From assembly GCA_002439755.1 (NCBI GenBank), contig DJPH01000014.1, positions 18,577-82,576 of the forward strand: a stretch of DNA of 64,000 nt, given 5' to 3'. Source of the stretch: Prevotellaceae bacterium UBA6417. GTDB lineage: Bacteria; Bacteroidota; Bacteroidia; Bacteroidales; Bacteroidaceae. A program made the position numbers and the translations under genes. This document shows, piece after piece, positions 2,676 to 62,523 of this stretch (positions are counted from its first letter, which is position 1; every line of letters starts with the position of its first letter). The notes beneath the pieces are model-generated. The model made no database searches. It was not told the origin of the DNA and worked only from the letters and a program-made list of their open reading frames with translations.

Positions 2676-3380
2676 TTAGTTATCCTTTTGTCGGATGATG
2701 ATGTCGTTGCTTATGCCGTTCAATGTGCTTAGCTTGTAGACCGCGGTGCGTTCTTTTCCCGTATTGTTTGCCTCGAAGTTCAGCTTTACAGTATGCATGC
2801 CGCTCTCGAAGTGCTGTTCTTTCGGTGTAATCCAGTCGGCATCTGTCGACAGTGTGGCTTCCTTGTCGTAGATGGTGAACACGAGTTGTGCCGATGTCGA
2901 ATCCTTGGCAGTCTCCTTCAGGAAATAGGCTCCTTGGTAGCTGCTGCCTCCCGGTATGTAGTTCATTCTGGTAGAGCCGCTGAAAGCCACGGCGGGTTCT
3001 ACGATGTTGAGCCAGTAGGTCTGCACATAGCTGCGGGCAACGGTGTGCTTATTGTTGGCAACTTTCAGCAAGGAGTTTCTGAGGGAGTTGCTTGTGTTGG
3101 GCGTGAAGTAGATGGGCATGGTGTGTGCTTCCACTTTTGTTCCGCTTTGTGTCATGGATGATTTGAGCGGATCCAGGGATGCGCCTTGGCCGTCAACGGT
3201 GGCTTTCCACGACGATACAGAGACAATGGTGAACGAGTCTACGGTTTGGTCTGCATAGACAATGGCCGCTCCGCTTATGATGGGATAGATGCCCAGTTCG
3301 TCATATTCAACGTCCTTCTTGTTGTCACATGCGGCCATTCCCATTAGGATGGCGAGCATACATAATACAGTTTTTTTCAT
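2676..3380 (-). CDS. hypothetical lipoprotein, BACON-like all-beta repeats
   Basis: Lipobox (GMAAC). The C-terminal segment DADWITP...NNTGKERTAVYKL...IIIRQ resembles the BACON/Ig-like domain pattern. No catalytic motif was seen. Confidence 0.4.
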   Translation of the reverse strand: MKKTVLCMLAILMGMAACDNKKDVEYDELGIYPIISGAAIVYADQTVDSFTIVSVSSWKATVDGQGASLDPLKSSMTQSGTKVEAHTMPIYFTPNTSNSLRNSLLKVANNKHTVARSYVQTYWLNIVEPAVAFSGSTRMNYIPGGSSYQGAYFLKETAKDSTSAQLVFTIYDKEATLSTDADWITPKEQHFESGMHTVKLNFEANNTGKERTAVYKLSTLNGISNDIIIRQKDN

Positions 3381-5002: not shown

Positions 5003-5015
5003 TAGATTGTGCGTG

Positions 5016-5190
5016 CGGTCTGTACACATCGAAAGTGTTTCATGTACATGAAACAGGTTGTTTCCTATAGGGGGAAGAGGTTGTTTCATGTACAGAGAAC
5101 AGGGTGTTTCACCTATAGGAAACACTCTGCAATCAGCCACATCGCAACCTGCGATATGTACACATCGCACGCTGCAATCGGCCACATCTG
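5016..5190. repeat. intergenic array A of about eight 22-23 bp units (TGTACA/palindrome family), inverted copy of array B
   Basis: Contains GTTTCATGTACATGAAAC (5037-5054) and GCGATATGTACACATCGC (5151-5168). The reverse complement of 5016-5168 aligns to 45566-45718 with 9 mismatches in 153 nt by hand alignment. Confidence 0.85.
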
Positions 5191-5221: not shown

Positions 5222-5255
5222 CACAAAAAAACCTGTAGGCTGTGCCCGCAGGTTT
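5222..5255 (-). terminator. rho-independent terminator of the small lipoprotein gene
   Basis: Plus-strand AAACCTG...CAGGTTT hairpin (5229-5255), extended by partial inner pairing. On the minus strand it is followed by a T-run (plus-strand A-run 5225-5231). Confidence 0.55.
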
Positions 5256-10946: not shown

Positions 10947-14132
<3,186 letters not shown>

Positions 14133-30388: not shown

Positions 30389-30413
30389 GAAAGTTCTTTT
30401 TCATATCATTTGA

Positions 30414-30445
30414 CCCGGGCAAAACTTGCCCGGGTTTTTATTTGG
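30414..30445 (+). terminator. rho-independent terminator closing the SusC/D operon
   Basis: 9-bp stem CCCGGGCAA/TTGCCCGGG with a 3-nt loop, followed by TTTTTATTT. Confidence 0.8.
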
Positions 30446-30519
30446 TTTGTAAGTAAGCAGTTACCGGTTCAATGTGATTCTTTCATTTAGCATACTTGCA
30501 GAGTATACGGTTCGTGCTT

Positions 30520-30667
30520 GCGATGTGTACAGATCGCAGGGTGCGATGTGCCGCATTGCAGGGTGCGATGTGTACAGATCGTTGTATGCGATGTGTATAG
30601 ATCGCAGGGTGCAATGTGCCGCATTGTAGGGTGCGATGTGTACAGATCGCACGGTCTGATGTGCCAT
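30520..30667. repeat. intergenic array C: 6.5 tandem 22-23 bp units (68-bp higher-order duplication)
   Basis: The units begin GCGATGTGTACAGATCGCAGGGT / GCGATGTGCCGCATTGCAGGGT. Block 30520-30587 is nearly repeated by 30588-30655. Confidence 0.9.
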
Positions 30668-30968: not shown

Positions 30969-31022
30969 ATGAGAAGATACATTTATTTATTGACACTCCT
31001 GCTATTGTGCCCCCCCTTTTGA
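30969..31022 (+). other. 17-codon ORF encoding the N-terminal part of a signal peptide (MRRYIYLLTLLLLCPPF*), out of frame with the downstream 1,499-codon ORF
   Basis: Direct translation. The frame breaks at the C7 tract, and one extra C would fuse it to the long ORF. Confidence 0.6.
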
Positions 31023-34000
31023 GTGCGGCTAAGGCAGATGACAATGTACCCAAGGCGGATATATTGGACGTCGTATTTAACAGTGACGGAACTGCAGTCG
31101 ACATTTCGCCGATGCAGAACGAAGTGCAGGTAATCGGCCAGTCGGCCATTGAGGTCTACTTCAACGAGACTTACAAAATGAACATTCCACGGTTTACCAA
31201 TCCGTGGAGCGGTACTGCAACACACTATTACAAGGTGGATTATGAAAACAACGAGGCATTCAAGTCGGCTTTGGCCGATGGCCATACCTTAGAAACCCTG
31301 GTCAAGGCAGACTATAGTGGTTCTCTTCCCAACAAAGAATGCAAACCTTTCAGTTCGCACCAGACTGGTGGTACAGGCCTGATGCTTTGTAAAACGGGCA
31401 AGAGTGTTAATGGTGGAAACGAATTTACGTTCCTTCCTTATATTGGCGAGTCTTATCGTTATACAGTTAGCGGTGTAACGCCTCAACCTAAGATATTCTA
31501 TCATGTTGTAGGCGTGTGGAACAAAGAAGAAGGCAAAACCTATATATACGTAGATGGTGAATTAAAAGGAACTACCGAAGTAGAAGGCGAGTTCAAATTT
31601 CCTACTGCCAAAAGCGGCTGGTTTGGCATCGGCTGCGACCCATCCGGCAATAAAGGTAATACTTCTTGGACAGGTGAGGTAGCTATTGCGCGCATCTATA
31701 ACGACCCTCTTACGGCAGACCAGGTGGCTGCCCTATACAAGCAAGTAGATGTCGGTGTTGATTATTCGCAGATGCTCCAGAATACGATAGACAGCATTGT
31801 TTCCATCGATCAGAAATATGCCATTGGCAATGACCCCGGCTGCTATACGCAAGAAGTGTTTGATAAGTACAATGCAGCTTATCTTGATGTTTTCCAAAAG
31901 GCACAGAATGCGGCCTACAATGGAGTTAACAAGGAAGAATACGAGATGTTGCGTTCACAGTTGCTCAATGCCTACAATGAGCTTCAGACGCAATATAATC
32001 CGTTGGCCGAAGGCTATTATTATATCGTAAGCAAGCAAGCCGCGTTTGCATCTCTTCAACCTGACGTGCAGAAGGCAATGTATGCCAAGGCCGACAGCAG
32101 GCTGTATTGGGGAAATCTAGACATGCAGAAGGCAATGTATGCCTTCCATCTTCGTAAGACCGACGATGGCAACTTTACCATCCAGAATGTTGCCACGAAA
32201 GAATATATCCGCTGTGTGACTGACGAAACGGGACACCATACCGACGCCTCCAGCTTTCAGGTTGAGCTTTCCAAAGAGCCGGATGCCAGCTACGAACAAT
32301 TCGTCAGATTCCTTGGCGTAGGTCAGTTCAACATCGGCAACACGGGCAATTCCCGCCCCTACAACGCTGACGGCAATCAGAGCGGCTATGGAATAAGCGG
32401 ACGCGTGACCACATGGAACGGAGCTCTCAATAGCGAGTCTGCCTGGGCTTTCAGCCGCATCACCGACGATGCACTAATCAAAGAATTTGAAGAAAACGGA
32501 GCAAAGCAGGTAATGGCCGACAGACTGCAGGATGCCATCACTGCAGCTCGTACATCAAGTGCCAAGGCCTATGACTATACCAAGCTCATCACTGATGCGG
32601 GGCAGATATCCTCAAATGCACAAAGTACAACCAACGGATCTACATATGCGGGGTTGATAGATGGACAAAGCGTAACCATCTTCCATTCTGTTTGGGACGG
32701 AACTTTCGCCACACCTCAGGTCGAAGGCCTTGGATGGCATAACCTGCAATTCAATATAGGTCGCCCTGTAAGCAAGATTAAATTCCATTTTGATGGCCGC
32801 GACAACTCAGACGGCTATCACGACAATCCCACCCACATCACCCTATATGCTACCAACGATGACAATCTTGGTGCCAGCACCGCTGCAGCCGATTCGGCCA
32901 TGTGGACTGAAATCGTAGATATGGGGCAGAAAGAATACGGTTTCCCCGGAGACCAAAACCTTGTGTCGTATGACTCTCCCGAGATAGACCTCAAGGGCTC
33001 TTACAAGTATCTTCGCTTTGTGGTGAAGCATGTGTCTACGCAGGAAACAAAGCGTGTCAACAAGTTTGCCACACCGAGCGTTACCGGTGTCACATTCAAC
33101 TTGAGCGAATTCCAAATCTATGATGCCGTACCGGCCGCTACTTCCGAATACTACAAAGTGCCTGGCATGAAAGAAGCTTGCGATGCGCTCGATGCTCTTA
33201 TCTCAGCTGCACAAGAAAAGATGACAAACCTTACTGTGACAGAGGAAGACATCCGTGCCATAGAAGAACAAGCCGTCAAGATAGAGGCACTCTATGTAGA
33301 CCGCGAATTCTTTGGCAATCAACTTGCAACGTTGCTTCAACGTGCCGATGGACTTTATAATGAAGTGCGTGGAACGAGTGTTCCGCTTGTGCTCAACGCA
33401 TCACAGCTGAGCACCAACAGCGTCAGTTCGTCCGATTATGGAAGTCTCGAACATCTGATAGATGGCCAGATAGACCAAAAACACAATTTCCACTCGGTAT
33501 GGATTACTGACCCGATGAAGAATGCCAACATCACTCCCGAAGAGTGGGAGGCTGCCATGGCTTCTGCCGGAAAGACCTTCGTAGGTCATGGCTATCATAA
33601 CCTGCAAGTAAAATTGAACGAACCGCAGTCCAAGTTCTGGTTTGAATATTACAGCCGCACGGGCGATTCCTATATCGACAATCCGAACGACATAGAGATT
33701 TATGTCACAAACGACGATGAGCTGGGTGCCACCCCTGACCAGGCCGATATAGACAAGTGGACCCGCATTACCGAGCTGACCGAAGGCTTCCCCGGTGTGG
33801 TGGCAGGTGTCCGTTATGTCTCTCCCGAAATAGACCTTGGAGACAGTTATAAGTATATTCGCTTTGTCATCAAGAACACGGCCATGGTCGGCACTGTATC
33901 CAATCGCACATTCGCAAATCCCGAAGTAACCGGCATTACCTGGAGCATCGGTGAAATGCAGCTGTATTCAGGCCTTAGTCCGGAACGTTGCCAATACAAC

Positions 34001-35506
34001 TATATAGCGGGAATGAAAGAGGCTTGCGATGCCATGAAAGCCCTCTACGATGAAGGCAGCAAGATGGAAAAACTGCAGATGGTCAATAGTGAGTTCAACG
34101 ACAAGTTTAGTGCCGCCATTGAGGCTGTTGTTGCCCTGTATGCCGATACTACCGAGTTGGTTCAGCTCTATAAGGAAAAGAAACTCTATGGAGCCAATAC
34201 TATAGTTGATGCAACCGAGATAGGTTGCCTTAACAGCGAGGAAAACCTTGTTGCATACAACGAAGCCATTGATGCCGCAAGAGCCTCCGTCGATAGCAAA
34301 AAGCCCGAGAAGGCCTCAATTGCCAAAGCCGTAGAAGATATAAAAGTCGCCTATACTACATTGATGGGTAATATAAACAAAGTAGAGACCGGCAAGTGGT
34401 ACTATATCGTTAGCAAGTCCAATTTGGCCTATTGTGCCGATAAAGCCATCTATATGAAAACGGCCAATAATGGCTCGACTATCAGCTTCGGCCTTTATAC
34501 GGCAGACGACGGTGCCACCTATACTGAGAATCCTTATGCCATGTGGCGCATCGTTCCCATAGAGGGCACAAGCTACTATAGCATCCAGAACCTGGGTACG
34601 GCTCACAATTTTGGTCCGTCATTGGGCAAAGGAACTGACTATAAAGTTCTCGTACAGAACGAGCCTTCTCCCTATCGCATCGATTACATAGGAAAAGGCC
34701 AGATACAGATGGTGTCCATCAACGATGACAACAAAGAGGGACATCAGATACATGCACAGGAAGATGGTAGCGTAATCGTTCCTTGGTCTACAGGTCTTGA
34801 TGGTGCTTCTTGCTGGACATTCAAAGAAGTAGATGCCGGTAGCATTGCCGCAGCTTTCCCTGTAAAGGAAAACAGCATCCGCATCCAGACACTGCCTTAT
34901 GACGTGCCTGCCGGTGTTACGTCCATCATGAATCTAAACGACGGCATCCAGACTTATGCTGTGAAGAACCTGACAATCGACGAAGCTACCAATACTACTA
35001 CACTTGAACTCACCTTGCAGGAAGAGGTCAAGGCTGGTGTGCCCTTTATATTGCAGTGTGGCGATTATAAGGCTTACAGTGCTGACGCTATAGATCGGTA
35101 CTTCCTCACTCCGCTGCCCGAAGAGGTAAGTTCTGCGGCTTCCGAAGCCAACGGCCTTATAGGAACGCTTGACGGTCTGACATTGAATAAGTCAGGTTTC
35201 GGCTATATCGACAATGACGGTCTGAAGGCTACCACATCGGCAGCATTCAGCATTGCAGGCCAACGTGGTTACATCGATCCTTCCAAGGTGAAAGCCGCTG
35301 AAGGCACCACCGACTTGGTTCTGACACTTGAAGGCGGCCTTATCAATGGTATCCAGACTGCTCAAGTAGCCAAGGCCACAGACAAAGTGAATGTCTACTC
35401 TGTGGATGGTAAGCTGATAAAGCGCAATGTGAAAGCTACAGAAGCATGCAAAGGCTTGAAGAAGGGCGTTTATATCATCGGCAAGCACAAAGTTGCCGTG
35501 AAGTAA
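31007..35506 (+). CDS. large T9SS-sorted lectin-like surface protein (LamG-like, 2x discoidin/F5-8C-like and 2x YYIVSK modules, C-terminal T9SS sorting domain); frameshifted relative to its signal peptide
   Basis: LamG-type segment (YHVVGVWNKEEGKTYIYVDGELKG...EVAIARIYNDPLTADQV). Two paralogous modules run about 32585-33225 and 33390-34070 (LIDGQ...FHSVW...HNLQ...YKY(L/I)RFV(V/I)K...(V/I)TG(V/I)T...E(F/M)Q(I/L)Y). The C-terminal VNVYSVDGKLIKRNV...LKKGVYIIGKHKVAVK matches the T9SS CTD pattern. The ORF as sequenced starts at GTG 31007 and has no signal peptide. Confidence 0.7.
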   Translation: MPPLLSAAKADDNVPKADILDVVFNSDGTAVDISPMQNEVQVIGQSAIEVYFNETYKMNIPRFTNPWSGTATHYYKVDYENNEAFKSALADGHTLETLVKADYSGSLPNKECKPFSSHQTGGTGLMLCKTGKSVNGGNEFTFLPYIGESYRYTVSGVTPQPKIFYHVVGVWNKEEGKTYIYVDGELKGTTEVEGEFKFPTAKSGWFGIGCDPSGNKGNTSWTGEVAIARIYNDPLTADQVAALYKQVDVGVDYSQMLQNTIDSIVSIDQKYAIGNDPGCYTQEVFDKYNAAYLDVFQKAQNAAYNGVNKEEYEMLRSQLLNAYNELQTQYNPLAEGYYYIVSKQAAFASLQPDVQKAMYAKADSRLYWGNLDMQKAMYAFHLRKTDDGNFTIQNVATKEYIRCVTDETGHHTDASSFQVELSKEPDASYEQFVRFLGVGQFNIGNTGNSRPYNADGNQSGYGISGRVTTWNGALNSESAWAFSRITDDALIKEFEENGAKQVMADRLQDAITAARTSSAKAYDYTKLITDAGQISSNAQSTTNGSTYAGLIDGQSVTIFHSVWDGTFATPQVEGLGWHNLQFNIGRPVSKIKFHFDGRDNSDGYHDNPTHITLYATNDDNLGASTAAADSAMWTEIVDMGQKEYGFPGDQNLVSYDSPEIDLKGSYKYLRFVVKHVSTQETKRVNKFATPSVTGVTFNLSEFQIYDAVPAATSEYYKVPGMKEACDALDALISAAQEKMTNLTVTEEDIRAIEEQAVKIEALYVDREFFGNQLATLLQRADGLYNEVRGTSVPLVLNASQLSTNSVSSSDYGSLEHLIDGQIDQKHNFHSVWITDPMKNANITPEEWEAAMASAGKTFVGHGYHNLQVKLNEPQSKFWFEYYSRTGDSYIDNPNDIEIYVTNDDELGATPDQADIDKWTRITELTEGFPGVVAGVRYVSPEIDLGDSYKYIRFVIKNTAMVGTVSNRTFANPEVTGITWSIGEMQLYSGLSPERCQYNYIAGMKEACDAMKALYDEGSKMEKLQMVNSEFNDKFSAAIEAVVALYADTTELVQLYKEKKLYGANTIVDATEIGCLNSEENLVAYNEAIDAARASVDSKKPEKASIAKAVEDIKVAYTTLMGNINKVETGKWYYIVSKSNLAYCADKAIYMKTANNGSTISFGLYTADDGATYTENPYAMWRIVPIEGTSYYSIQNLGTAHNFGPSLGKGTDYKVLVQNEPSPYRIDYIGKGQIQMVSINDDNKEGHQIHAQEDGSVIVPWSTGLDGASCWTFKEVDAGSIAAAFPVKENSIRIQTLPYDVPAGVTSIMNLNDGIQTYAVKNLTIDEATNTTTLELTLQEEVKAGVPFILQCGDYKAYSADAIDRYFLTPLPEEVSSAASEANGLIGTLDGLTLNKSGFGYIDNDGLKATTSAAFSIAGQRGYIDPSKVKAAEGTTDLVLTLEGGLINGIQTAQVAKATDKVNVYSVDGKLIKRNVKATEACKGLKKGVYIIGKHKVAVK
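31010..31016 (+). repeat. C7 homopolymer at the frame junction
   Basis: Seven consecutive C (31010-31016) followed by T4. Confidence 0.95.
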
Positions 35507-45525: not shown

Positions 45526-45544
45526 TATCAGAGCCCTGGCTTGC

Positions 45545-45722
45545 GGTCTGTACACATTGCAGGGTGTGATGTGTACATATCGCAGGTTGCGATGTGGCTG
45601 ATTGCAGGGTGTTTCATGTACATGAAACACCTTCTTCTATGTACATGAAACAACCTCTTCCCCCTATAGGAAACAACCTGTTTCATGTACATGAAACACT
45701 TTCGATGTGTACAGACCGTAGG
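45545..45722. repeat. intergenic array B: eight 22-23 bp units, inverted copy of array A, between convergent purM and cca
   Basis: Unit starts are at 45545, 45566, 45589, 45611, 45634, 45657, 45680 and 45703. It contains two perfect 18-bp palindromes GTTTCATGTACATGAAAC (45611-45628 and 45680-45697). Confidence 0.9.
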
Positions 45723-45734
45723 CCAGGATGTGTA

Positions 45735-52789: not shown

Positions 52790-54181
52790 ATGGAAGCATT
52801 CCTGATAAGAGCATTACAGCTCATTTTGTGTTTTTCGATACTCATTCTTCTGCATGAGGGCGGCCACTTTTTCTTTGCCAAGCTCTTCAAGGTGCGTGTA
52901 GAAAAGTTCTGCCTATTCTTTGATCCTTGGAAGACATTGTTGAAGTTTCGTCCCAAGAAGTCAGATACCGAATATTGTCTCGGCTGGCTTCCGTTGGGCG
53001 GATATGTAAAGATCTCGGGCATGATTGACGAATCCATGGACACGCAACAGATGAAACAGCCGCCCCAGCCCTGGGAGTTTCGCTCCCATCCTGCCTGGCA
53101 ACGCTTGTTGATTATGCTGGGGGGTGTGCTGGTCAACTTTATATTGGCGCTGTTCATCTATTCCATGATTCTCTTTTATTGGGGCGAGACCTACATCCCG
53201 CTTGACCGGATGTCGAAGGGCATGCAGTTCAATAATGAGGCCAAGGCTTTGGGTTTTAAGGATGGCGACGTGTTGCTCTCGACCGATAAGCGTGCTTTCA
53301 AACGTTTTGACAGCAGCGAGAGCATAGGTTCGGTCTACCGTGACATCTCGTCGGCCCAGTATGTAACGGTGCTGCGCAACGGCCATAAGGTCAACGTGGA
53401 TATACCGGCCGATGGGCTCAACATGCTCAATATGTTCCGTGCCGTGCCACCTTTTGTGTCCACCTATGTGCCGTCTGTGATAGATAGTGTTGTAGCGGGC
53501 ACTCCTGCCGCCAAGGCAGGCATCTGCAAGGGAGACCGCCTGATGGCTTTCAATCAGTCCAAGGTGGTTACGTGGAATGACTTTAATGTGGCCATCCAAC
53601 AACTCAGTGACCGCCTTGTGGGTGCACCTACCGACGACAGCCTTGCGGCACGTCACGTCAGCGTGGTGGTGAGCCGTGCCCGCACCCATAAGATAGATAC
53701 CTTGAAGCTCATGCTGATGCCTTCCCTGACCATGGGGGTTATCAAGGCGAGCCCTTACACCATGTACAAGCCCGTCACGGTCAAGTATGGTTTCTTCGAG
53801 TCTATTCCGGCAGGCATCAATCACGGCATTGACGTGCTGGCAGGCTATGTCGACGACTTGAAATACCTGTTTACCAAGGAAGGAGCCCGCAGTGTAGGCT
53901 CGTTTGGTGCAATAGGCAGCATGTTTCCTACGTCATGGGATTGGCAGCGCTTTTGGGAGTTGACGGCTTTCATCAGCATCATCCTGGCCTTCATGAACCT
54001 GTTGCCGATACCTGCTCTCGACGGTGGCCATGTGTTGTTCCTGCTGTGCGAAATCATCACGCGCCGCAAACCGAGCGAAAAGTTCATGGAGCGCGCCCAG
54101 ATGGTGGGCATGATCATCCTGCTGGTGCTGATGGTCTATGCCGTCGGCAACGATGTGTTGCGCTTCATTTTCCATATGTAA
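52790..54181 (+). CDS. rseP: RIP (site-2) zinc metalloprotease RseP
   Basis: HEGGHF (HExxH), PDZ region and the C-terminal NLLPIPALDGG motif. Confidence 0.9.
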   Translation: MEAFLIRALQLILCFSILILLHEGGHFFFAKLFKVRVEKFCLFFDPWKTLLKFRPKKSDTEYCLGWLPLGGYVKISGMIDESMDTQQMKQPPQPWEFRSHPAWQRLLIMLGGVLVNFILALFIYSMILFYWGETYIPLDRMSKGMQFNNEAKALGFKDGDVLLSTDKRAFKRFDSSESIGSVYRDISSAQYVTVLRNGHKVNVDIPADGLNMLNMFRAVPPFVSTYVPSVIDSVVAGTPAAKAGICKGDRLMAFNQSKVVTWNDFNVAIQQLSDRLVGAPTDDSLAARHVSVVVSRARTHKIDTLKLMLMPSLTMGVIKASPYTMYKPVTVKYGFFESIPAGINHGIDVLAGYVDDLKYLFTKEGARSVGSFGAIGSMFPTSWDWQRFWELTAFISIILAFMNLLPIPALDGGHVLFLLCEIITRRKPSEKFMERAQMVGMIILLVLMVYAVGNDVLRFIFHM

Positions 54182-54229
54182 GAGGGCTGCGGCCCATCGC
54201 TTGCTATAACCGTTCTTTAGTGTACTCTT

Positions 54230-55912
54230 GTGAAATACAGATTTTTGCAGCTCTTATTGTGCCTTGTCTGCATTCCATTGTGGGCAGGCATACGGGTCAA
54301 TGGCCTGAGGCCTGCCTATGATTCCCTATGGAACATGTACCTTTATGCCTTGCCCGAGGGGTGTTTCCATGGCGACAGCTGCCGTCTGACCATTACGATT
54401 GACAGTGTGCAGCCCAACACTGTTTATTTTGTAGATGCCGAAGTGATCAGGGGCGATTCGCTTACCTTGGACATTATCCCCGCGAAGGCAATGACAGGCT
54501 GCCGCATTCTTTCAGTGTCGGCCGATACATTGCTGATCGACAGACTGATGTTTACGTCGCTTCCGATAGTGCAGCTGGAGGGTGAGTTCGGCTATGACTA
54601 TATGCAGGGACGTTTCGGGTTGCAGGCTGCCGATTCGCTGACTGCCGGACGGCTGTTGGCCAAAATAAAGTGGCGGGGCGGCTCAACCAACGGTGAAGGC
54701 AGGCACAAACGCAACTATCATGTCAAGTTTCTTGCTGATACGCTTGGCGGGGAACAAGAGGTGAACTTCATGGGTTTCAGGTCGAGCGACAGCTGGATAT
54801 TGGATGCGGCCCAGGTCGATTTGAGCAGAATCCGCAACAGGACGTGCACCGATTTGTGGAACGATTTTGCCCGCCGTCCCTATTATGCTGCCAAGGAACC
54901 CGAGGCACGCAGCGGTGCAAGAGGCCGTTTTGTAGAGCTCTTCCTCAACCATCGCTACATGGGAGTCTATTCTTTGGGCGAAGCCATCGACAGAAAGCAG
55001 CTCAAGCTGAAGAAATATAAGAATGAGGAGATAAGAGGGCAGCTGTGGAAAACCAAGGCATGGACGACAGATGTGACCATGTACGGAGTGCCCGAATATG
55101 ATAATGAGCAGGAAAGCATGGGCGGATATGAAACCAAGTATCCGAAGCTCGACAAGGCTTTTCCCACCGACTATTCGGTCATTCACAACGCCATCAGGCT
55201 GGTGGCCGAAAGCAACGACAGTGTCTTTGAGGCATGTGTGGGCGACTGTTTCGACTTGCCTGTGCTGACCGACTACTATGTGTTTCTTCATACTGTCTAT
55301 GCCATCGACAACAATGGCAAGAACATGTATTGGGCATGCCATGACAAGACCGTCTCGCCCAAGCTGACCTTGGCCGTGTGGGACCTTGATGCCACAATCG
55401 GGGGCAACGTGGATTGCAATGAAATCAGGACAGAGCCTTTGGCTCCCTGCAACGACTTTATGGACAGGTTTGGCTACCTGAATCTCCTCCGCCGGCTGTA
55501 TCAAGGCAATCTGTGCGGCTTCCGCGATGCCGTAAATGAACGCTTCTGGCAGTTGCGTGAGGGATGTCTGCACACCGATTCCCTGGTGGCGCGCTTCATG
55601 GGCAATATAGAGAAATTGCAGCTTTGCGGCGCAGCCGAGCGTGAAGAACGGCGGTGGAGCGGTGATTCTGACTTATGTTACAGGGAGCTTTGTCTACACG
55701 ACGAGGCTGCCTATATGGCGGATTGGATAAGGCGGCATATGCAGTTTCTCGACGAAGAAGTCTTTAATCGGAGTGCTTCGGCTGTACATTCCGTGAAGCG
55801 CGATGCGGCTCATCGCGATGTGGTGTACGACCTTTTCGGACGTCCTGTTGATACAGCCAGGATGTCGCCGGGTCTATACATCAGGAACGGACGTCTTTAT
55901 CAGAAGAAGTAG
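54230..55912 (+). CDS. secreted CotH-family (atypical kinase fold) protein
   Basis: GTG start and signal peptide. CotH-like blocks are present: RNYHVKF..., RFVELFLNHRYMGVYSLGEAIDRKQL, and DNNGKNMYWACHD...AVWDLDATIG. Confidence 0.55.
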   Translation: MKYRFLQLLLCLVCIPLWAGIRVNGLRPAYDSLWNMYLYALPEGCFHGDSCRLTITIDSVQPNTVYFVDAEVIRGDSLTLDIIPAKAMTGCRILSVSADTLLIDRLMFTSLPIVQLEGEFGYDYMQGRFGLQAADSLTAGRLLAKIKWRGGSTNGEGRHKRNYHVKFLADTLGGEQEVNFMGFRSSDSWILDAAQVDLSRIRNRTCTDLWNDFARRPYYAAKEPEARSGARGRFVELFLNHRYMGVYSLGEAIDRKQLKLKKYKNEEIRGQLWKTKAWTTDVTMYGVPEYDNEQESMGGYETKYPKLDKAFPTDYSVIHNAIRLVAESNDSVFEACVGDCFDLPVLTDYYVFLHTVYAIDNNGKNMYWACHDKTVSPKLTLAVWDLDATIGGNVDCNEIRTEPLAPCNDFMDRFGYLNLLRRLYQGNLCGFRDAVNERFWQLREGCLHTDSLVARFMGNIEKLQLCGAAEREERRWSGDSDLCYRELCLHDEAAYMADWIRRHMQFLDEEVFNRSASAVHSVKRDAAHRDVVYDLFGRPVDTARMSPGLYIRNGRLYQKK

Positions 55913-56218
55913 CAGGGCTTGGCAATTTAAGTTAATATATTGACAACTTTAACTGCTTAATTGTTAATTTTAAGTGCTGGATTTGTGCGGAATTTTTGTG
56001 CAAAACAGCACATAAAACCGGCTTTTCCGACCTTTTTACAGGCTGAAAATGCCGTTTCAAGCCTTGCAAAATGGCTCATAAGCCCCCTCAATTAGGTAAA
56101 ACAGCTGTGAAAAATCCGTTTTTCGGGTCTCATAAGATACTTTTTGCAGCCGTCGATTGGTGGTAGCAAGGTGGGTTTTCTGCCCGTTTGTGGCATGCCG
56201 TCACGGAGCATTGGGTGA

Positions 56219-56413
56219 GCGATGTGTACATGTCGAGGCTGCGATGTGTACAGTTTGTGCGTGCGATATGTACATGTCTCAGGTAGTGATGTGTACATAT
56301 CAGTGGGTGCGATGTGTACAGTTTGTGCGAGCGATGTGTACATGTGTGAGTAGCGATATGTACATATCGCAGGGTGTAATGTGTAGGGATCGTGCGTGCG
56401 ATGTGTACAGACC
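56219..56413. repeat. intergenic array D: nine tandem 22-23 bp units with a conserved GCGATGTGTACA head
   Basis: Unit starts are at 56219, 56241, 56263, 56286, 56309, 56331, 56353, 56376 and 56398. There are eight TGTACA cores and one perfect palindrome GCGATATGTACATATCGC (56353-56370). Confidence 0.9.
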
Positions 56414-56752
56414 TAAATGCCTGAAATGCTGATATATTATTCATTTACAGAATGTTTCCCTGTTATATCCCGCGGGGCTGCTTTTCTTGCTACGGATGTT
56501 TCCGGAGCTTTCAGCCGGTTTTGAGGTTTGAACAGGGGAGAAAGTGTCGCCTTTTGTGCCTTTAAAGCCTCTGAGAAGCCCGTCGGTTGGTCGGAAAAAG
56601 CCCGTGAAGGCAATTGCAGGTGGTATGGGAGACTTATCGAATTGTTAAAATTATTAATGCAAAATCACCCTAAAACCTGTTGCCGTTGCGGCCTCCGAAA
56701 GCCCGGCATGAGCAAAATGAGGGTGATATTTGCCCAAGCAACTGAATTGTTG

Positions 56753-56760
56753 TACCTTTG
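56753..56760 (+). promoter_or_regulatory. prfA promoter: -7 TACCTTTG with -33 TTTG at 56729-56732
   Basis: Exact TAnnTTTG with a canonical 20-nt spacer to TTTG, 37 nt upstream of the ATG at 56798. Confidence 0.6.
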
Positions 56761-56797
56761 CAGTAAAATCAACAGCATACAGATTCCCGACAGATAT

Positions 56798-57910
56798 ATG
56801 GCAGAAGAAAACTCGTTGCTCGACAAGCTCGACGGCTTGAAATCAAGGTTTGAAGAAATCAGTACGCTTATTACAGACCCCTCTGTTATAGGCGATCAAG
56901 GTCGCTATGTCAAGCTTTCCAAGGAGTATAAAGACTTGGAACGGCTGATGAATGCACGCACCGAATATGCCGCCCTGCTGCGTAACCTGAGCGAAAGCAA
57001 GAGCCTGCTGCTTTCGGAAGACGACCCCGAAATGAAAGAAATGGCTCGCGAAGAGATAGCAACCTGCGAAGCGCGCAAGCCGCAGTTGGAGGAAGAAATC
57101 AAGCTTCTGCTCATTCCGCAGGACCCCGAAGACGGAAAGAATGCCATACTCGAAATACGTGGAGGCACAGGAGGCGATGAGGCAGCCCTGTTTGCCGGCG
57201 ACCTGTTGCGCATGTATACAAAGTATGCAGAGCGCAAAGGCTGGAAAATGGAGATATCGAGTGCCAGCGAAGGAGCCGTGGGAGGCTTCAAGGAAGTGAT
57301 ATGCTACGTATCCGGCCAGGATGTCTACGGCACCCTCAAGTATGAAAGCGGCGTGCATCGCGTGCAGCGTGTGCCGGCCACCGAGACACAGGGCCGCGTG
57401 CATACATCGGCAGCCACCGTGGCCGTGCTGCCCGAAGCCGACCAGTTTGAAGTGCAAATCAACGAAGGTGAAATCAAATGGGACACATTCCGCTCCAGCG
57501 GAGCCGGTGGACAGAACGTCAACAAAGTGGAGTCGGGCGTACGTCTGCGCTACAACTGGAAGAACCCCAACACGGGCGAGGTGGAAGAAATTCTCATAGA
57601 GTGTACCGAAACCCGCGACCAGCCCAAAAACAAGGAAAGGGCCCTGTCGCGCCTGCGTACCTTTATCTACGACAAGGAACACCAGAAATATGTGGACGAC
57701 ATAGCCAACCGTCGCAAAACCCTTGTAAGCACCGGAGACCGCAGTGCAAAGATACGCACCTACAACTATCCCCAAGGACGTGTGACCGACCACAGGATAG
57801 GGTATACCATGTATAATCTGCCCGCATTCATGGATGGCGACATACAGGACTGCATAGACCACCTCATAGTGGCCGAAAACGCAGAACGAATGAAAGAAGC
57901 CGAATTATAA
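56798..57910 (+). CDS. prfA: peptide chain release factor 1
   Basis: RF1-specific PAT tripeptide ([10 protein letters not shown]) and the GGQ motif ([13 protein letters not shown]). The start is at MAEENS, downstream of the promoter box. Confidence 0.95.
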
Positions 57911-57921
57911 ACAACAAAAAT

Positions 57922-58758
57922 ATGACCAGACAGCAACTCATAGAAAACATACGCACAAAAGAGTCCTTCCTGTGTGTAGGTCTCGACAGCGATAGAAAAA
58001 AGCTCCCCCATCACCTCTTGGGAGACGACGACCCCCAGTTCAGCTTCAACAAAGCCATTATAGACGCCACCGCACCCTACTGCGTGGCCTACAAACCCAA
58101 CGTAGCCTTCTACGAATGTGAAGGCATACAGGGATGGACATCCTTGGAGAAAACAGTGGAATACCTGCGGCGTTACTATCCCGACCATCTCATCATTGCC
58201 GATGCCAAACGCGGTGACATAGGCAACACCTCAGCCATGTATGCCCGTTGTTTCTTTGAGGAACTCGGTGTGGATGCCGTAACCATAGCACCCTATATGG
58301 GCGAAGACAGTGTTTCACCCTTCCTGGGCTATCCCGGCAAATGGGTCATACTGCTGGCACTGACCAGCAACAAAGGCTCGCACGACTTCCAGATGAGAGA
58401 GACCAAGGACAGCCATGAACGGCTCTTCGAAACCGTCATCAGAAAAAGCCAATCATGGGCAGACGAACAGCAGATGATGTATGTCGTGGGAGCCACTCAG
58501 GGACAACTCTTTGAAGATGTACGCCGCATAGCCCCCAACAACTTCCTGCTCGTGCCCGGCGTAGGGGCACAGGGAGGGTCGCTCGAAGAGGTATGCCGAT
58601 ACGGAATGACCGACGACTGCGGCCTGCTGGTCAACAGTTCGCGAGGCATCATCTTTGCCGACAGCACCGAACACTTTGCAGCAACGGCAGCCGAAAAGGC
58701 CAAGGAACTGCAACAGCAAATGCGCCAGCAACTGCAGCAACGCCACATCGTGTCGTGA
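57922..58758 (+). CDS. pyrF: orotidine-5'-phosphate decarboxylase (type 2)
   Basis: CVGLDSD..., the [10 protein letters not shown] motif and PGVGAQGG. Confidence 0.9.
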
Positions 58759-58767
58759 CCTGAGCCG

Positions 58768-60012
58768 ATGATCATCAACGACCCCGTCTTCGGGTTCATC
58801 GAAATACCCGAAGGCCTATTGGCACAACTCGCGAGACATCCCATCATGATAAGGCTGACCCGGCTCAAACAGCTGGGAGCCACCCACTACGTATATCCCG
58901 GAGCCGTGCATACACGCTTCGGACATTCTATCGGAGCCTACCATCTGGTCACCGAAGCCCTCGGCACATTGGAGAAAAAAGGGGTAGTAATAACCAAGGA
59001 CGAATGTCTGGGAACGCAAATCGCAATGCTGCTCCACGACATAGGACACGGGCCGATGTCGCATGCACTGGAAAACACATTGGTCAAAGACGTCGAACAC
59101 GAAACCATCTCGCTGCTGCTGATGCAGCGCCTCAACCAAGAGACCGGCGGACAACTGGAAACAGCCATCAGCATCTTCAAAGACCAACACCCCAAGCATT
59201 TCCTCCATGAACTGATATGCAGCCAACTCGATATGGACCGTCTGGACTACCTGTGCCGCGACAGCTTCTTCGCAGGAATCAGGGAAGGAACCATCGGAGT
59301 GGCACGCATCATCAAAATGCTCGATGTCAGAAACGACCGCCTCGTCATAGACCACAAAGGCATCTATACCATAGAAAACTACCTGATGGCACGCCGCCTT
59401 ATGTATTGGCAAGTCTATCTGCACAAAACAGCAATGGCCGCACAAGAAGTGCTCAGAATGACCGTAGAGCGGGCAAAAGACCTGATGCGCAAAGGGCTGA
59501 AACTGCCCTGCACGCCACAGCTGGCCTACTTCCTGCAAAGCGACATCACAGCAAAAGCAATGGACAACCAACCGCAATGGGCAGACCGTTTCACAGCCAT
59601 TGACGACAGCGACATGGAAAATGCCATCAAGCAATGGACCACCTGCGAAGACAAAGTGCTGGCACTGCTCGCCTCAGACTACATCGACCGGCATCTCTTC
59701 AAGTCAAAAGAGTTGACAGGACCCATAACAGACCGGGCCTTGAACCAATTGCGCCGGCAAATGGCCTCACATCTCGGCATCAGCGAGCAAGAGGCCTCCT
59801 ATCTCGTACGCTACAAAGAAACCGACCAGATGCTCTATTCATCCGATGACGAGCACATATGCATCTCATTTAAAGACGGTACCACCCGTGACATCTCGGA
59901 ATGCTCCGAGTTATTGAAATCCAATCTGACCGACAAGAAAAGCAAACGCTACAATCTTTACTATCAGCGCAGCCCCTTACAAATACCGGCCGATTTTTGC
60001 CTGCCAGAGTGA
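58768..60012 (+). CDS. HD-domain phosphohydrolase (YdhJ/SAMHD1-like)
   Basis: RFGHSIGAYHL, LLHDIGHGPMSH and DMDRLDYLCRDS motifs. Confidence 0.75.
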   Translation: MIINDPVFGFIEIPEGLLAQLARHPIMIRLTRLKQLGATHYVYPGAVHTRFGHSIGAYHLVTEALGTLEKKGVVITKDECLGTQIAMLLHDIGHGPMSHALENTLVKDVEHETISLLLMQRLNQETGGQLETAISIFKDQHPKHFLHELICSQLDMDRLDYLCRDSFFAGIREGTIGVARIIKMLDVRNDRLVIDHKGIYTIENYLMARRLMYWQVYLHKTAMAAQEVLRMTVERAKDLMRKGLKLPCTPQLAYFLQSDITAKAMDNQPQWADRFTAIDDSDMENAIKQWTTCEDKVLALLASDYIDRHLFKSKELTGPITDRALNQLRRQMASHLGISEQEASYLVRYKETDQMLYSSDDEHICISFKDGTTRDISECSELLKSNLTDKKSKRYNLYYQRSPLQIPADFCLPE

Positions 60013-60084
60013 AAATGTTCATACTACGTATATAATATGTCTGCTTTTTTTGCGATATTTGCAGACTAAAGTGGATAAAAAACA

Positions 60085-61131
60085 ATGGAATTTACAGCAA
60101 AACAAATTGCATCCCATCTCCATGGAACTATAGAAGGCAATGAAAATGCAACAGTACATACATTCGCTAAAATAGAGGAAGCTCACGAAGGTTCAATATC
60201 CTTTCTGGCCAATCTCGCCTATGAGCACTACCTCTATGACACAAAGGCAAGCATTGTATTGGTGAACAAGGATTTCAAGCCTCAACAGCCCGTTGCCGCA
60301 ACACTCATACGCGTGGACAACGCCTATGAATGCATAGCAAGCCTGCTGGCACTCTATGAACAGAGCAAACCGCAGAAAAAAGGCATCAGTTCGCTGGCTT
60401 CGATAGCCGCAAGTGCCAAAATCGGAGACGACTGCTATATAGAGCCCTTCGTGTGTATCGGCGAGAATGTGGTGATAGGCAGCCACACACAGATCTATGC
60501 TCACTCGACAATCTGCGACAATGCCAAAGTGGGCGACAACAGCCTGTTGTATCCCAACGTGACAGTCTACCACGACTGCATCATAGGCAGCAATGTCATA
60601 CTCCATTCAGGTGTCGTGATAGGGGCCGACGGCTTCGGCTTCGCTCCCACGGCAGAGGGATATGAGAAGATACCGCAAATAGGCATCGTCACCATAGAAG
60701 ACAATGTTGAAATAGGCGCAAATGCCTGTGTGGACCGCTCAACCATGGGGTCTACATTTGTCAAAAAAGGAGTGAAGCTCGACAACCTGGTGCAGATAGC
60801 ACACAATGTGACTGTAGGCGAAAACACCGTAATGAGTGCCCAAGTGGGCGTAGCCGGCTCAACCAAGATAGGAAAATGGTGCATGTTTGGCGGACAAGTG
60901 GGAATTGCCGGCCATTCCACCATAGGAGACTTCACCAAAAGTGGGGCACAGGCAGGCATCGCAGGCAGCATACCAAAGGGCAACACCACAATCATCGGCT
61001 CCCCGGCCATCGAGGCTCGACGCTTCGCACGTTGCAACGCCGTGTTCCGCAACCTTCCACAGCTGTCGAAAGAAGTGCAGGACCTGAAAGCCGAAATAGA
61101 AGAATTAAAACAATCACTCAACCAAAAATAA
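60085..61131 (+). CDS. lpxD: UDP-3-O-acylglucosamine N-acyltransferase
   Basis: LpxD N-terminal domain, a left-handed beta-helix of hexapeptide repeats and a C-terminal coiled helix. It sits in the lpx cluster. Confidence 0.9.
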
Positions 61132-61137
61132 AGCAGC

Positions 61138-62523
61138 ATGCTAAAACAAAAGACCCTGAAAGGCAGTTTCTCCCTATATGGCAAGGGGCTTCATACCGGG
61201 TTACATATCACTGCAACGTTCAATCCGGCACCAGAGAACACAGGCTACAAAATCCAACGTATTGATCTGGAAGGCCAGCCAATCATCGATGCAATAGCCG
61301 AGAATGTGGTGGATATGACGCGAAGCACAGTCCTCGCCAAAGGCGAAGCACGATGCTCAACGGTAGAACATGCATTGGCCGCCCTCTATGGAATGGACAT
61401 CGACAACTGCCTCATCCAAGTGAACGGTCCCGAAATGCCTATCCTCGAAGGTAGCGCAGAAGCATACATCGAAAGCATAAAAAACGTAGGCATAGTAGAG
61501 CAAAACGCCAATAAGGATGTATACATCATCCGTAAAAAAATAGAAGTGCACGACGAAGCCACAGGGGCATCCATCGTGATACTCCCTGACGACAGCTTCA
61601 GCATTACGGCAATGATTTCCTATCAGTCAAAGTGGTTCTCAAGCCAGTTCGCTACATTAGAGAACGTCAAAGACTTTGACAAGGAGATAGCCCGTGCGCG
61701 TACGTTTGTCTTTGTGCGCGATGTCGAACCCCTGCTTCAGGCCGGCTACATCAAAGGAGGTGACTTGGACAATGCCATAGTCATTTATGAAGAAGAAATA
61801 CCTCAGGAACGTCTTGACAAGCTGGCCGACCATTTAGGCGTAGCACATGTGGATGCAAAGAAGCTGGGATTCCTCAATACGAAACCTCTGGTATGGGAGA
61901 ATGAACCCGCACGCCACAAGCTTCTGGACATCGTGGGCGACATGGCTCTGATAGGACGCCCTATTCGCGGACGCATCATTGCCACCAAGCCCGGCCATTC
62001 CATCAACAACAAGTTTGCACGGCAGATAAGGCGTGAAATACGTGCACACGAGGTGCAGGCACCCATATACGACTGCAACAACGCACCCCTGATGGACGTT
62101 AACCGCATACGTGAGCTTCTTCCGCACCGCTACCCCATGCAGCTGGTTGACAAAGTCATTGAAATAGGTTCCAACTTTATCGTGGCAGTGAAAAACGTAA
62201 CAAGCAATGAGCCCTTCTTTCAAGGCCACTTCCCCCAGGAGCCTGTCATGCCCGGCGTGCTTCAGATAGAGGCAATGGCACAGGCAGGAGGCTTGCTCGT
62301 GCTCAACTCTGTAGAGGAGCCCGAACGCTGGAGCACCTACTTCATGAAAATAGACGGCGTGAAATTCCGTCAGAAAGTAGTGCCTGGTGATACACTCATC
62401 TTCAGAGTGGAACTGCTGGCCCCTATCAGGCACGGCGTTTCCTCAATGAAAGGCTTTGTCTTTGTAGGCGACAAAGTGGTGAGCGAAGCCACCTTTACAG
62501 CCCAAATAGTAAAGAACAAGTAA
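61138..62523 (+). CDS. lpxC/fabZ: bifunctional UDP-3-O-acyl-GlcNAc deacetylase / 3-hydroxyacyl-ACP dehydratase
   Basis: LpxC motifs (GKGLHTG, TVEHALAAL, HKLLD.VGD) fused to a FabZ hot-dog domain (FFQGHFP..PVMPGVLQIEAMAQ). Confidence 0.95.
   Translation: MLKQKTLKGSFSLYGKGLHTGLHITATFNPAPENTGYKIQRIDLEGQPIIDAIAENVVDMTRSTVLAKGEARCSTVEHALAALYGMDIDNCLIQVNGPEMPILEGSAEAYIESIKNVGIVEQNANKDVYIIRKKIEVHDEATGASIVILPDDSFSITAMISYQSKWFSSQFATLENVKDFDKEIARARTFVFVRDVEPLLQAGYIKGGDLDNAIVIYEEEIPQERLDKLADHLGVAHVDAKKLGFLNTKPLVWENEPARHKLLDIVGDMALIGRPIRGRIIATKPGHSINNKFARQIRREIRAHEVQAPIYDCNNAPLMDVNRIRELLPHRYPMQLVDKVIEIGSNFIVAVKNVTSNEPFFQGHFPQEPVMPGVLQIEAMAQAGGLLVLNSVEEPERWSTYFMKIDGVKFRQKVVPGDTLIFRVELLAPIRHGVSSMKGFVFVGDKVVSEATFTAQIVKNK

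Follow-up and report, generated by a model that had tools for sequence, protein, structure and literature searches.

Tandem palindromic units downstream of genes: a dispersed, modular extragenic repeat family in an uncultured Bacteroidaceae species

What is the role of nine closely similar 22-23-nt units that stand in tandem at positions 56219-56413 of contig DJPH01000014.1 from Prevotellaceae bacterium UBA6417, within a gap of 885 nt that separates two genes? The 64,000-nt stretch of this contig that we analyzed is referred to below as the window, and coordinates given without a locus name are those of the window. A preliminary description, made by reading the sequence without database searches, had noted the array and three others like it, and had left several interpretations side by side. 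Our analysis shows that the array belongs to a dispersed, modular, palindromic and extragenic family, the copies of which have a polarity with respect to transcription, are constrained within the species, change by whole units and exchange sequence between loci. The best reading of these data is that of a lineage-specific family in an uncultured gut Prevotella-like species (placed by GTDB in the family Bacteroidaceae).

Segmentation and Tandem Repeats Finder (TRF) both bore out the nine units of 22-23 nt, at the starts originally proposed. They follow each other head to tail on the forward strand at intervals of 22, 22, 23, 23, 22, 22, 23 and 22 nt, and TRF called the array at 56219-56409 (period 22, 8.5 copies). 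It also reported super-periods of 45, 67 and 90 nt (71-82% match), which indicate that the array arose partly through duplication of a three-unit block; approximately 2.9 copies of such a block of about 67 nt make up the whole. The scarcity of the pattern by chance was clear, since a window scan for two- and three-unit periodic patterns (shuffle expectation 0.00) gave 4-5 matches, all inside this array.

The units had been described as a 12-nt "invariant" head followed by a tail of about 10 nt. Conservation of the head (GCGATGTGTACA) was confirmed, but invariance was not, as GCGATATGTACA, GTGATGTGTACA and GTAATGTGTAGG also occur. The actual module is a 20-nt imperfect palindrome (TG...CA, with a core that is usually TGTACA; consensus TGCGATGTGTACAGATCGCA in the 56219 array) plus a 3-nt linker (GGG/GGT or ACC/GCC/CCT), and this composition accounts for the period of 22-23 nt. 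The accompanying remark that the period is close to two helical turns is weak, as 22-23 bp corresponds to about 2.2 turns. The hexamer TGTACA occurs 29 times in the window, compared with an expectation of 13.5 ± 3.6 (29 or more copies in none of 100 shuffles), and the four window arrays contain 21 of these copies, exactly the number previously counted by hand.

Segmentation of 104 units from the window and related loci revealed several arm types: A (TGCGAT-GTGTACAS-ATCGCA), B (TGTTTC-ATGTACAT-GAAACA), C (TGCAATG-TGCCG-CATTGCA) and D (TGTTTCC-TATA-GGAAACA). The array at 56219 is of type A, and the 5′ half of its units, the former head, is better kept than the 3′ half. Two of its units (at 56241 and 56309) represent a "first-unit" variant, GCGATGTGTACAGTTTGTGCG, and the last one an "end" variant, GTGTACAGACC.

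In the 54 distinct units on which covariation was tested, 79% of the stem cells are paired, compared with 70% in shuffled controls. Cells changed on both sides number 49, versus 24 ± 3.7 in the controls, and the covariation score is 0.40 versus 0.26; neither value was reached in any of 500 shuffles, and registers slid along the unit scored 0.03-0.23. The units thus turn out to be the short palindromes that they had been taken for. These comparisons indicate that the symmetry of the module is real and maintained; they do not demonstrate many independent compensations.

The array at 56219 is composed of the same nine units in all three strains compared. Its pairwise identity (95.8, 89.5 and 90.6%) may be set against that of the upstream spacer (91, 80 and 81%) and of the first 140 nt downstream (66-82%). 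Variable positions amount to 6 of 108 in the heads and 16 of 83 in the tails, and there are none in the TGTACA cores.

Are these units a local peculiarity or a family? The three sister arrays of the window were confirmed at 5011-5190, 30519-30663 and 45542-45722 (TRF spans 5035-5124, 30519-30663 and 45542-45703). Outside the window, a scan of one genome per species with a strict pattern of two adjacent heads yielded 22 loci, of which 11 lie in a single metagenome-assembled genome (MAG), CAKRYD01, from an uncultured Bacteroidaceae bacterium of Hadza stool. One of them (L020) is the ortholog of window positions 54000-61998, with the 56219 array included, and its DNA is 95.5% identical, which makes CAKRYD01 conspecific with the window. 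Nine of the ten further CAKRYD01 loci were inspected, and the arrays there comprise 3 to 13 units. Together with related copies on other contigs, these loci establish a genuine family beyond the four arrays first seen. The strict two-unit pattern recognizes just one of the four window arrays; the true number of arrays per genome is probably several-fold above the scan count, and four arrays in 64 kb plus 11 strict-pattern matches in the MAG suggest tens of arrays and hundreds of units.

The copies are related to each other by more than the module. Multi-unit blocks recur at separate loci with 81-89% identity (93% for the inverted composite pair of the window described below). The A-type arrays of separate loci have a common first-unit variant (GTGTACAGYTTGWGCG) and a common last-unit variant (GTGTACAGACCG), and the first 64 nt or so of the arrays at L002 and L007 are near-identical (61 of 64, counted by eye). 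These likenesses argue for whole-block copying and against an independent origin of the arrays.

In taxonomic terms, the nearest named relatives of the PrfA and PurM proteins encoded in the window (84-88%) are from Prevotellamassilia, Alloprevotella and "Prevotellaceae" MAGs. One locus of a Mediterranea MAG (L012) has four units with a similar head, and the matches in Polyangiaceae, Treponema and other taxa appear to be unrelated or due to chance. A metagenome scan with a more general pattern (three TGTACA at 22-23 nt), which also picks up unrelated tandem repeats, gave one related locus, L077, among the matches listed.

The position of the arrays relative to genes is highly regular. Each of 13 independent loci is intergenic and follows the 3′ end of a gene, as proposed for the four window arrays, whose gene contexts had been correctly assigned (after cotH, after a SusD-like gene and its terminator, between convergent purM and cca, and after a 63-aa open reading frame (ORF) and a hairpin). 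Between co-directional genes the unit heads are on the coding strand at 6-8 of 8 loci, the range being due to two loci at which a contig end truncates the left neighbour; convergent genes flank four other loci, and no locus has divergent neighbours. Array orientation does not track local GC skew. Some arrays (45542, L003, L004, L006 and L015) begin 17-64 nt past a stop codon with no terminator between, while others (30519, after the terminator at 30412-30446; 5190, after a hairpin with T7; L002, L007, L008 and L013) are located 3′ of a clear one.

The two strands of the arrays are not equivalent. Mismatches in the predicted stems are more often G.T than A.C (91 versus 41; 50 versus 12 in A-type units). 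In RNA folding against shuffles, the sense strand of the 56219 array reached -89.4 kcal/mol (z = -6.2) and the antisense strand -44.1 kcal/mol (z = -2.9), and the sense strand was the more stable in 8 of 8 A-type (GCGATGTGTACA-type) arrays, by 14-62 kcal/mol. The strand with the stabler fold is the one that would be co-transcribed with the upstream gene. In the composite arrays, which contain several arm types, both strands fold strongly (-98 kcal/mol with z = -11, and -82 kcal/mol with z = -8) and the inverted ends pair up; their B and D units with the flanking T-rich linkers are terminator-like on both strands.

On the basis of these predicted structures we propose that the arrays occupy the 3′ untranslated or read-through zone of the upstream gene, with which they are co-oriented. 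A transcribed array would give a G/U-rich RNA with very stable stem-loops, and these could act as a barrier to 3′-exonucleases and to read-through, backing up a terminator or insulating neighbouring transcription units from each other. Between the convergent purM and cca genes, where the composite array is the only hairpin-forming sequence, it would be the probable bidirectional terminator. The modules, of several arm types whose two halves change together, are joined head to tail with no spacers; arrays lengthen and shorten through whole-unit slippage or unequal recombination, and the observed sequence relationships show that multi-unit blocks have been copied or homogenized between loci. We judge the chances to be evenly balanced that the arrays are transcribed from the sense strand and act through RNA hairpins as a 3′-end barrier or insulator, including the role of a substitute bidirectional terminator between purM and cca. 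REP/BIME elements, iterons and an insulator had all been offered as possible explanations; behaviour like that of REP (repetitive extragenic palindromic) elements and bacterial interspersed mosaic elements (BIMEs) and an insulator or 3′-end role fit best, whereas strict REP membership and the iteron were not upheld.

Several points weigh against this proposal. The better conservation of the 5′ half of the unit suggests sequence-specific recognition, for example by a protein, rather than pure structure, and a double-stranded palindromic protein site would give identical symmetry. The covariation between unit types draws on few independent events (the differences among the types), and composite-element copies showed no more of it than their controls. 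The commonest unit (TGCGATGTGTACAGATCGTA) carries a fixed G.G mismatch and is a weak hairpin alone. The orientation statistic draws on 6-8 informative loci, and the folding asymmetry is partly a by-product of the G+T richness of the sense strand. A good intrinsic terminator upstream of several arrays means that these would be transcribed by read-through only. Finally, neither the window nor the array loci revealed a transposase, a target-site duplication or a sharp boundary of the element.

Some of these points suit an array that works at the DNA level, where each 20-bp palindrome would be bound, like an operator, by a protein dimer. The protein could be a nucleoid-associated one, gyrase or integration host factor as at the BIMEs of Escherichia coli, a regulator, or a transposase belonging to the element itself. 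Many dimers would then be loaded onto the tandem sites and could organize the DNA, block polymerases or titrate the protein. The head GCGATGTGTACA, and above all its TGTACA core, is far better kept than the tail (6/108 versus 16/83 variable positions, and no variable core position), the units keep strictly to a spacing of 22-23 bp, symmetric covariation of the arms suits a dimer site as well as a hairpin, and the commonest unit, a poor hairpin, is a good two-fold site (CGAT-N-TGTACA-N-ATCG). However, the same arrays combine at least four arm types (GCGAT, GTTTC, GCAAT, and GTTTCC around a TATA centre), so that several specificities or a very loose recognition would be needed. The excess of G.T over A.C, the strand asymmetry and the orientation relative to genes are not expected of a symmetric double-stranded site; no candidate binding protein was linked to the arrays among the neighbour genes of the 13 loci, and the LexA boxes of Bacteroidetes differ from TGTACA. 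We therefore regard binding at the DNA level as an unlikely explanation of the arrays.

How the arrays change can be followed in other strains and species. The array at 5011-5190 is identical in 10 sampled strains, and that at 45542-45722 in nine. In the tenth strain (L160:7631-7772, the ortholog of window positions 45526-45734) an exact deletion of 69 nt has removed three units between identical TGTTTCATGTACATGAAACAC (B) units, and this change reads as the signature of slippage or unequal recombination. In a sister species (purM and cca about 90% identical in DNA; L162:1947-2155), this gap, of 207 nt, again contains eight units that are TG...CA palindromes, with only 74% identity, while paralogous copies within the species are 81-89% alike; copies have therefore spread or been homogenized between loci since the species split. 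In a more distant relative (L163:4170-4292), in which purM is followed by rpmE (L31) and not by cca, a plain strong terminator hairpin is found there. A sister species with 95% PrfA identity lacks an array before prfA; its synteny differs, so no empty site can be defined.

Spread of this kind could also be that of selfish or neutral DNA, a non-autonomous element similar to REPINs or to MITEs (miniature transposable elements with inverted repeats), bearing a minisatellite, mobilized by a transposase encoded elsewhere, varied by slippage and devoid of a host function, which is tolerated only at harmless 3′ intergenic sites. Such an origin agrees with the multi-unit blocks at unlinked loci (81-93% identity), with paralogs that are closer than the sister-species ortholog, with the common first- and last-unit variants, and with a unit number alterable by slippage. 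The absence of arrays from divergent promoter regions would be expected from purifying selection against harmful insertions, and Bacteroidetes have their own subclass, 2.6, of REP-associated tyrosine transposases (RAYTs) with "atypical" flanking hairpins that are also present elsewhere in the genome (PMC6006769). Against it, the arrays are more conserved within the species than the adjoining noncoding DNA, and the number of units is stable: nine in 3 of 3 strains at 56219, no differences among 10 strains at 5011-5190, and an unchanged array in 9 of 10 at 45542. The purM-cca array predates the split from the sister species, and neither terminal inverted repeats of the insertion-sequence type nor target-site duplications nor a Y1/HUH transposase were present in the window or at the array loci. 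A purely selfish or neutral nature of the arrays is therefore doubtful. Both this account and binding at the DNA level are compatible with arrays that act as RNA hairpins at 3′ ends, and neither excludes it.

The surroundings of the 56219 array bear on a further question, namely whether it is a gene in its own right. The gap (55913-56797, 885 nt) contains no credible gene, as first reported, and neither a tRNA nor an Rfam family; its only ORFs, 56130-56444 (minus strand) and 56157-56432 (plus strand), cross the array and were rejected as repeat artefacts because the period of the repeat (22-23 nt) is not divisible by three. It is flanked by a CotH-family gene (54230-55912, plus strand, the same strand as the unit heads) and by prfA for peptide chain release factor 1 (56798-57910, plus strand), and noncoding spacers of 306 nt after cotH and 384 nt before prfA surround the array. 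A weak terminator-like hairpin followed by a GCTGCTTTT(T) run (56458-56487, plus strand) lies 45 nt 3′ of the array; this assignment is tentative, though a short hairpin is kept here in all three strains with different stems (GCCC/GGGC and AGCTC/GAGCT). The sole Bacteroides-type -7 box of the gap (TAnnTTTG, here TACCTTTG; 56753-56760, plus strand), approximately 40 nt before the prfA start, is likely to be the prfA promoter and is also conserved in the sister species without the array. The terminator-like site and the promoter in between set the array apart from prfA.

An independent noncoding RNA gene, or part of one, would need a promoter of its own in the 306-nt spacer after cotH and would end at 56458-56487. 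The long noncoding spacers (306 nt upstream and 384 nt downstream), the weak terminator-like site that follows the array in 3 of 3 strains and the very stable fold of the sense strand are in keeping with such a gene. There is, however, no TAnnTTTG -7 box between cotH and the array, the only box in the gap being that of prfA, and the conspecific MAG has not kept the near-match that the window has at 56143 (TACTTTTTG). No Rfam match was found, the flanks of the 56219 array are not repeated at the other arrays, and other arrays start 17-64 nt past a stop codon, where there is no room for a promoter. This combination makes a separate RNA gene very improbable.

Some further properties of this gap were recorded. 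The segment 56410-56549 is unusually variable among strains (66-82%). The two spacers (55913-56218 and 56414-56720) include several loosely similar stretches of the form GAAAAnGCCGnTTTCnnGCC (e.g., AAAACCGGCTTTTCCGACC, GAAAATGCCGTTTCAAGCC and GAAAAAGCCCGTGAAGGC), which have no repeats elsewhere in the window. The PrfA protein of this species has been called as 370, 400, 417, 422 or 471 aa, the frame being open upstream into the gap (window 56528-57910; homologs P0001-P0008), and a spurious 104-aa ORF spans the array (56130-56444, minus strand). Both the upstream-extended PrfA calls and this ORF are annotation artefacts of the repeat-bearing gap.

Of the sister arrays, the one at 45542-45722 (plus strand) is a composite of eight units in the order A-A-C-B-B′-D-B-A. 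It begins 17 nt past the purM stop codon and fills the entire gap between the convergent purM-like and cca genes; its linkers change from GGG/GGT to ACC/CCT at mid-element, and its ends are inverted repeats (CGGTCTGTACACAT). The array at 5011-5190 (minus strand) is its inverted counterpart, in which 168 nt (5011-5178) complement 45556-45723 at 93%. Its minus-strand neighbours are, on the 5′ side, a response-regulator gene, a 63-aa ORF and a terminator-like hairpin with T7 (5222-5255, minus strand) and, on the 3′ side, a GATase_7 gene. This hairpin, just upstream of the array in the sense of transcription, was read from the sequence and had been missed by the terminator scanner on account of its 13-nt loop. 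The composite order A-A-C-B-B′-D-B(-A) recurs at two loci of a related MAG and on one metagenome contig, and an alignment of five copies of the composite element revealed neither target-site duplications nor sharp ends.

The third sister array (30519-30663, plus strand) has six units in which type A (TGCGATGTGTACAGATCGCA) alternates with type C (TGCRATGTGCCGCATTGYA), giving a super-period of 68 nt at 95% identity. It follows, at a distance of 73 nt, the strong intrinsic terminator of a SusD-like gene (30412-30446, plus strand; 11-bp stem and T run). The only neighbour gene family recurrent at the 13 loci comprises paralogs of roughly 1500 aa with Laminin_G_3 as their sole Pfam domain, which adjoin arrays at three of the loci (window 31007-35506, L013:594-5138 and L077:4596-8933), twice just downstream and once just upstream of the array. 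This recurrence probably reflects an abundant genomic gene family that is found beside SusC/SusD pairs.

Could the arrays belong to a replicon or an integrated element, as iterons or as sites akin to centromeres? With their direct repeats of about 22 bp in tandem they look like plasmid iterons, and units B and D have arms (TGTTTCA...TGAAACA) that bring to mind those of the chromosomal parS consensus. Relative to parS, however, the B unit has a centre that is longer by 4 bp, and this would break the dimer geometry. The copies are dispersed over many chromosomal 3′ intergenic sites, in a syntenic housekeeping context and in every strain examined; their neighbours are housekeeping genes and genes of polysaccharide utilization loci that are syntenic in more than 10 strains and include no rep, par or integrase gene, and the copies are oriented with transcription. 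Iterons and centromere-like sites are thus effectively excluded.

The scans also uncovered other short repeats. Seven gut metagenome loci (L042, L044, L045, L049, L102, L126 and L127) carry a different repeat of four 20-nt palindromes, ACAARAGTGTACACTYTTGT, spaced by about 23 nt; it always adjoins a TTGATAATCAA-type palindrome in AT-rich intergenic DNA and has the GTGTACAC core and the period in common with the family studied here, with other arms. A recurrent block, AGAGCG..GTGTACACGYGTGTATACAGTTGTGTACAC.., in which GTGTACAC/GTATAC motifs follow each other three or four times in steps of about 22 nt, was found in many unrelated metagenome contigs, within otherwise conserved noncoding sequence (L034, L037, L043, L052, L071, L074, L082, L094, L097, L109 and L125). 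Another 22-nt periodic family, TTGTACAAAAGAATKMAWTCTTCTGTACAAAAC, comes mostly from gut-type metagenomes of the Joint Genome Institute (L065, L067, L073, L075, L076, L083, L088, L100, L106, L118, L123, L134 and L141).

In the GC-rich myxobacterial Polyangiaceae MAG ABC1.6, doublets to quadruplets of GGCGATGTGTACACA with 21-22-nt spacing are present at six loci (L005, L014, L016, L017, L018 and L021), some of them within apparent coding sequence; they constitute a separate short-repeat family with a common GATGTGTACA core. A Treponema MAG locus (L009) has, at positions 2760-3312, an array of 15 or more 22-nt units (CCACGGCGATGTGTACAAATAT) that degenerates toward one end and is probably an unrelated minisatellite. 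Loci L026-L029 of a related species (PrfA identity 91%), in which no array precedes prfA, contain intergenic 21-nt tandem repeats, ACAGACCAAATCGGATTAAGA (x2.8) and ACTAACTCCGTTTTCGTCACG (x2.8), at about 2175-2330 / 3401-3460 and 13606-13664.

To our knowledge, short extragenic palindromic repeats, which are well studied in Proteobacteria, have hardly been explored in Bacteroidales, the dominant gut order, and BrickBuilt is the sole comparable element described there. The array family is a clear-cut case, defined by sequence, from an uncultured gut species that is widespread; one of the neighbouring genes is indexed in 146 blocks of a public assembly collection. Should the arrays be 3′-end barriers, they would bear on how transcripts are ended and insulated in Bacteroidales, whose intrinsic terminators are poorly defined. 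There are practical consequences as well: spurious ORFs are called on arrays and prfA is extended upstream to 400-471 aa, and variation in unit number (e.g., of the purM-cca array) could serve as a strain-typing marker.

How does the family compare with known repeats? As had been supposed, no described family was matched. The 64-kb window gave no Rfam match at the gathering score or at E-values up to 1, and within the gap the scan reached chance level only (mir-5014, 22.6 bits versus a gathering score of 101, and snoZ105). Full-text literature searches with the unit sequences returned chance matches only (a plant virus paper and a mantis mitogenome paper), and keyword searches for REP or MITE repeats of Prevotella and Bacteroides gave no description of such a repeat. 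The family is thus absent from Rfam and from the searchable literature, while the kind of repeat to which it belongs, the extragenic palindromic one, is well known. A CRISPR array was rejected, since the units abut with 3-nt linkers and there are no spacers, as was a LexA/SOS box, for which the Bacteroidetes motifs are GGA-N5-TCC and CTAA-N5-TTAG and not TGTACA.

REPs are imperfect palindromes of 20-40 nt, strictly extragenic and clustered, which are found in co-directional or convergent gaps, mostly 3′ of coding regions; the stems of their sub-families differ by complementary changes, G.T pairs hint at a function at the RNA level, and a head-to-tail arrangement is rare (PMC3733652). The modules described here are likewise short palindromes (20 nt) with the potential for a stem-loop, 79% of their stem cells being paired, and likewise extragenic, in unidirectional or convergent gaps 3′ of genes; clustering into arrays, complementary stem changes between sub-families and G.T pairs are further common features. 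REPs are also associated with RAYT genes flanked by the repeats, and no RAYT was seen near the arrays in the window or at the loci examined. In contrast to REPs, which carry a conserved unpaired tetranucleotide at one end (GTAG in more than 90% of members, or CGTC), GTAG is found in the last 8 nt of only 14 of the 104 units, where it overlaps the stem, and CGTC or GACG in one of 104. The BIMEs of E. coli have alternating units and conserved linker motifs, whereas A-type units are joined head to tail with 3-nt linkers and all their GTGTACAG cores point one way; a BIME-like switch of polarity is limited to the composite arrays, where it affects the linkers once, at mid-element. The host also differs, being a member of the Bacteroidales and not an enterobacterium or a Pseudomonas.

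The BrickBuilt MITE of Porphyromonas gingivalis (Klein et al. 2015, PMC4596501) comes from the same order and also has intergenic tandem units of 22-23 nt without spacers. Identity with it was rejected, as its unit, AGACCATAGTATCCTCTCATATG, is not matched in the window at up to three mismatches; it is non-palindromic and unrelated to the units described here. The BrickBuilt leader and tail end in IS5-like terminal inverted repeats (GAGACCTTTGCA), for which the window has four matches at up to two mismatches (6.3 expected), none near an array. In comparisons of the window and CAKRYD01, the flanks of the arrays are not repeated from one array to another, and the arrays have neither a leader nor a tail.

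The pneumococcal BOX elements (boxA-boxB(n)-boxC) and the Correia/NEMIS elements of Neisseria are dispersed, intergenic and modular: their end modules are distinct, and the internal ones vary in number. Transcribed together with neighbour genes, they fold into stable stem-loops and influence termination or the stability of the mRNA. The arrays are similar in being dispersed, intergenic and modular, in their variable internal number and in their end variants. They differ in sequence, module size and host, and in that every module is palindromic.

Among the systems compared, the hairpins of RAYT subclass 2.6 appear to be the most interesting lead. This subclass is specific to Bacteroidetes, and its "atypical" flanking hairpins have copies elsewhere in the genome (Quentin et al. 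2018, PMC6006769). Compared by description only, the modules are like them in host phylum, in their non-canonical form, in the lack of a GTAG foot and in their scattered copies. A difference is that no Y1 transposase (RAYT) was seen with them: a motif scan for Y1/HUH in all ORFs of the window and of the array-bearing loci examined revealed none near the arrays, and the connection has the status of a lead. A single Y1/HUH-like ORF (NHFH ... YILNNP) was noted on a human-gut contig (L081, about 13110-13461, minus strand), approximately 4 kb from an unrelated CCTGTACACC repeat.

We advance only tentatively, and as an improbable extension, the idea that the arrays are the recognition substrate of a dedicated protein in gut Prevotella-like bacteria, with which they would make up an actively maintained 3′-end insulator or terminator system. 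The reader of the arrays may be a RAYT of subclass 2.6, with the arrays as its "atypical REP", or a new RNA- or DNA-binding factor that recognizes the TGTACA-centred head. In comparison with the known systems, the array works in kind like REP/BIME sequences and like the minisatellite-bearing MITEs of Porphyromonas, and is a member of neither.

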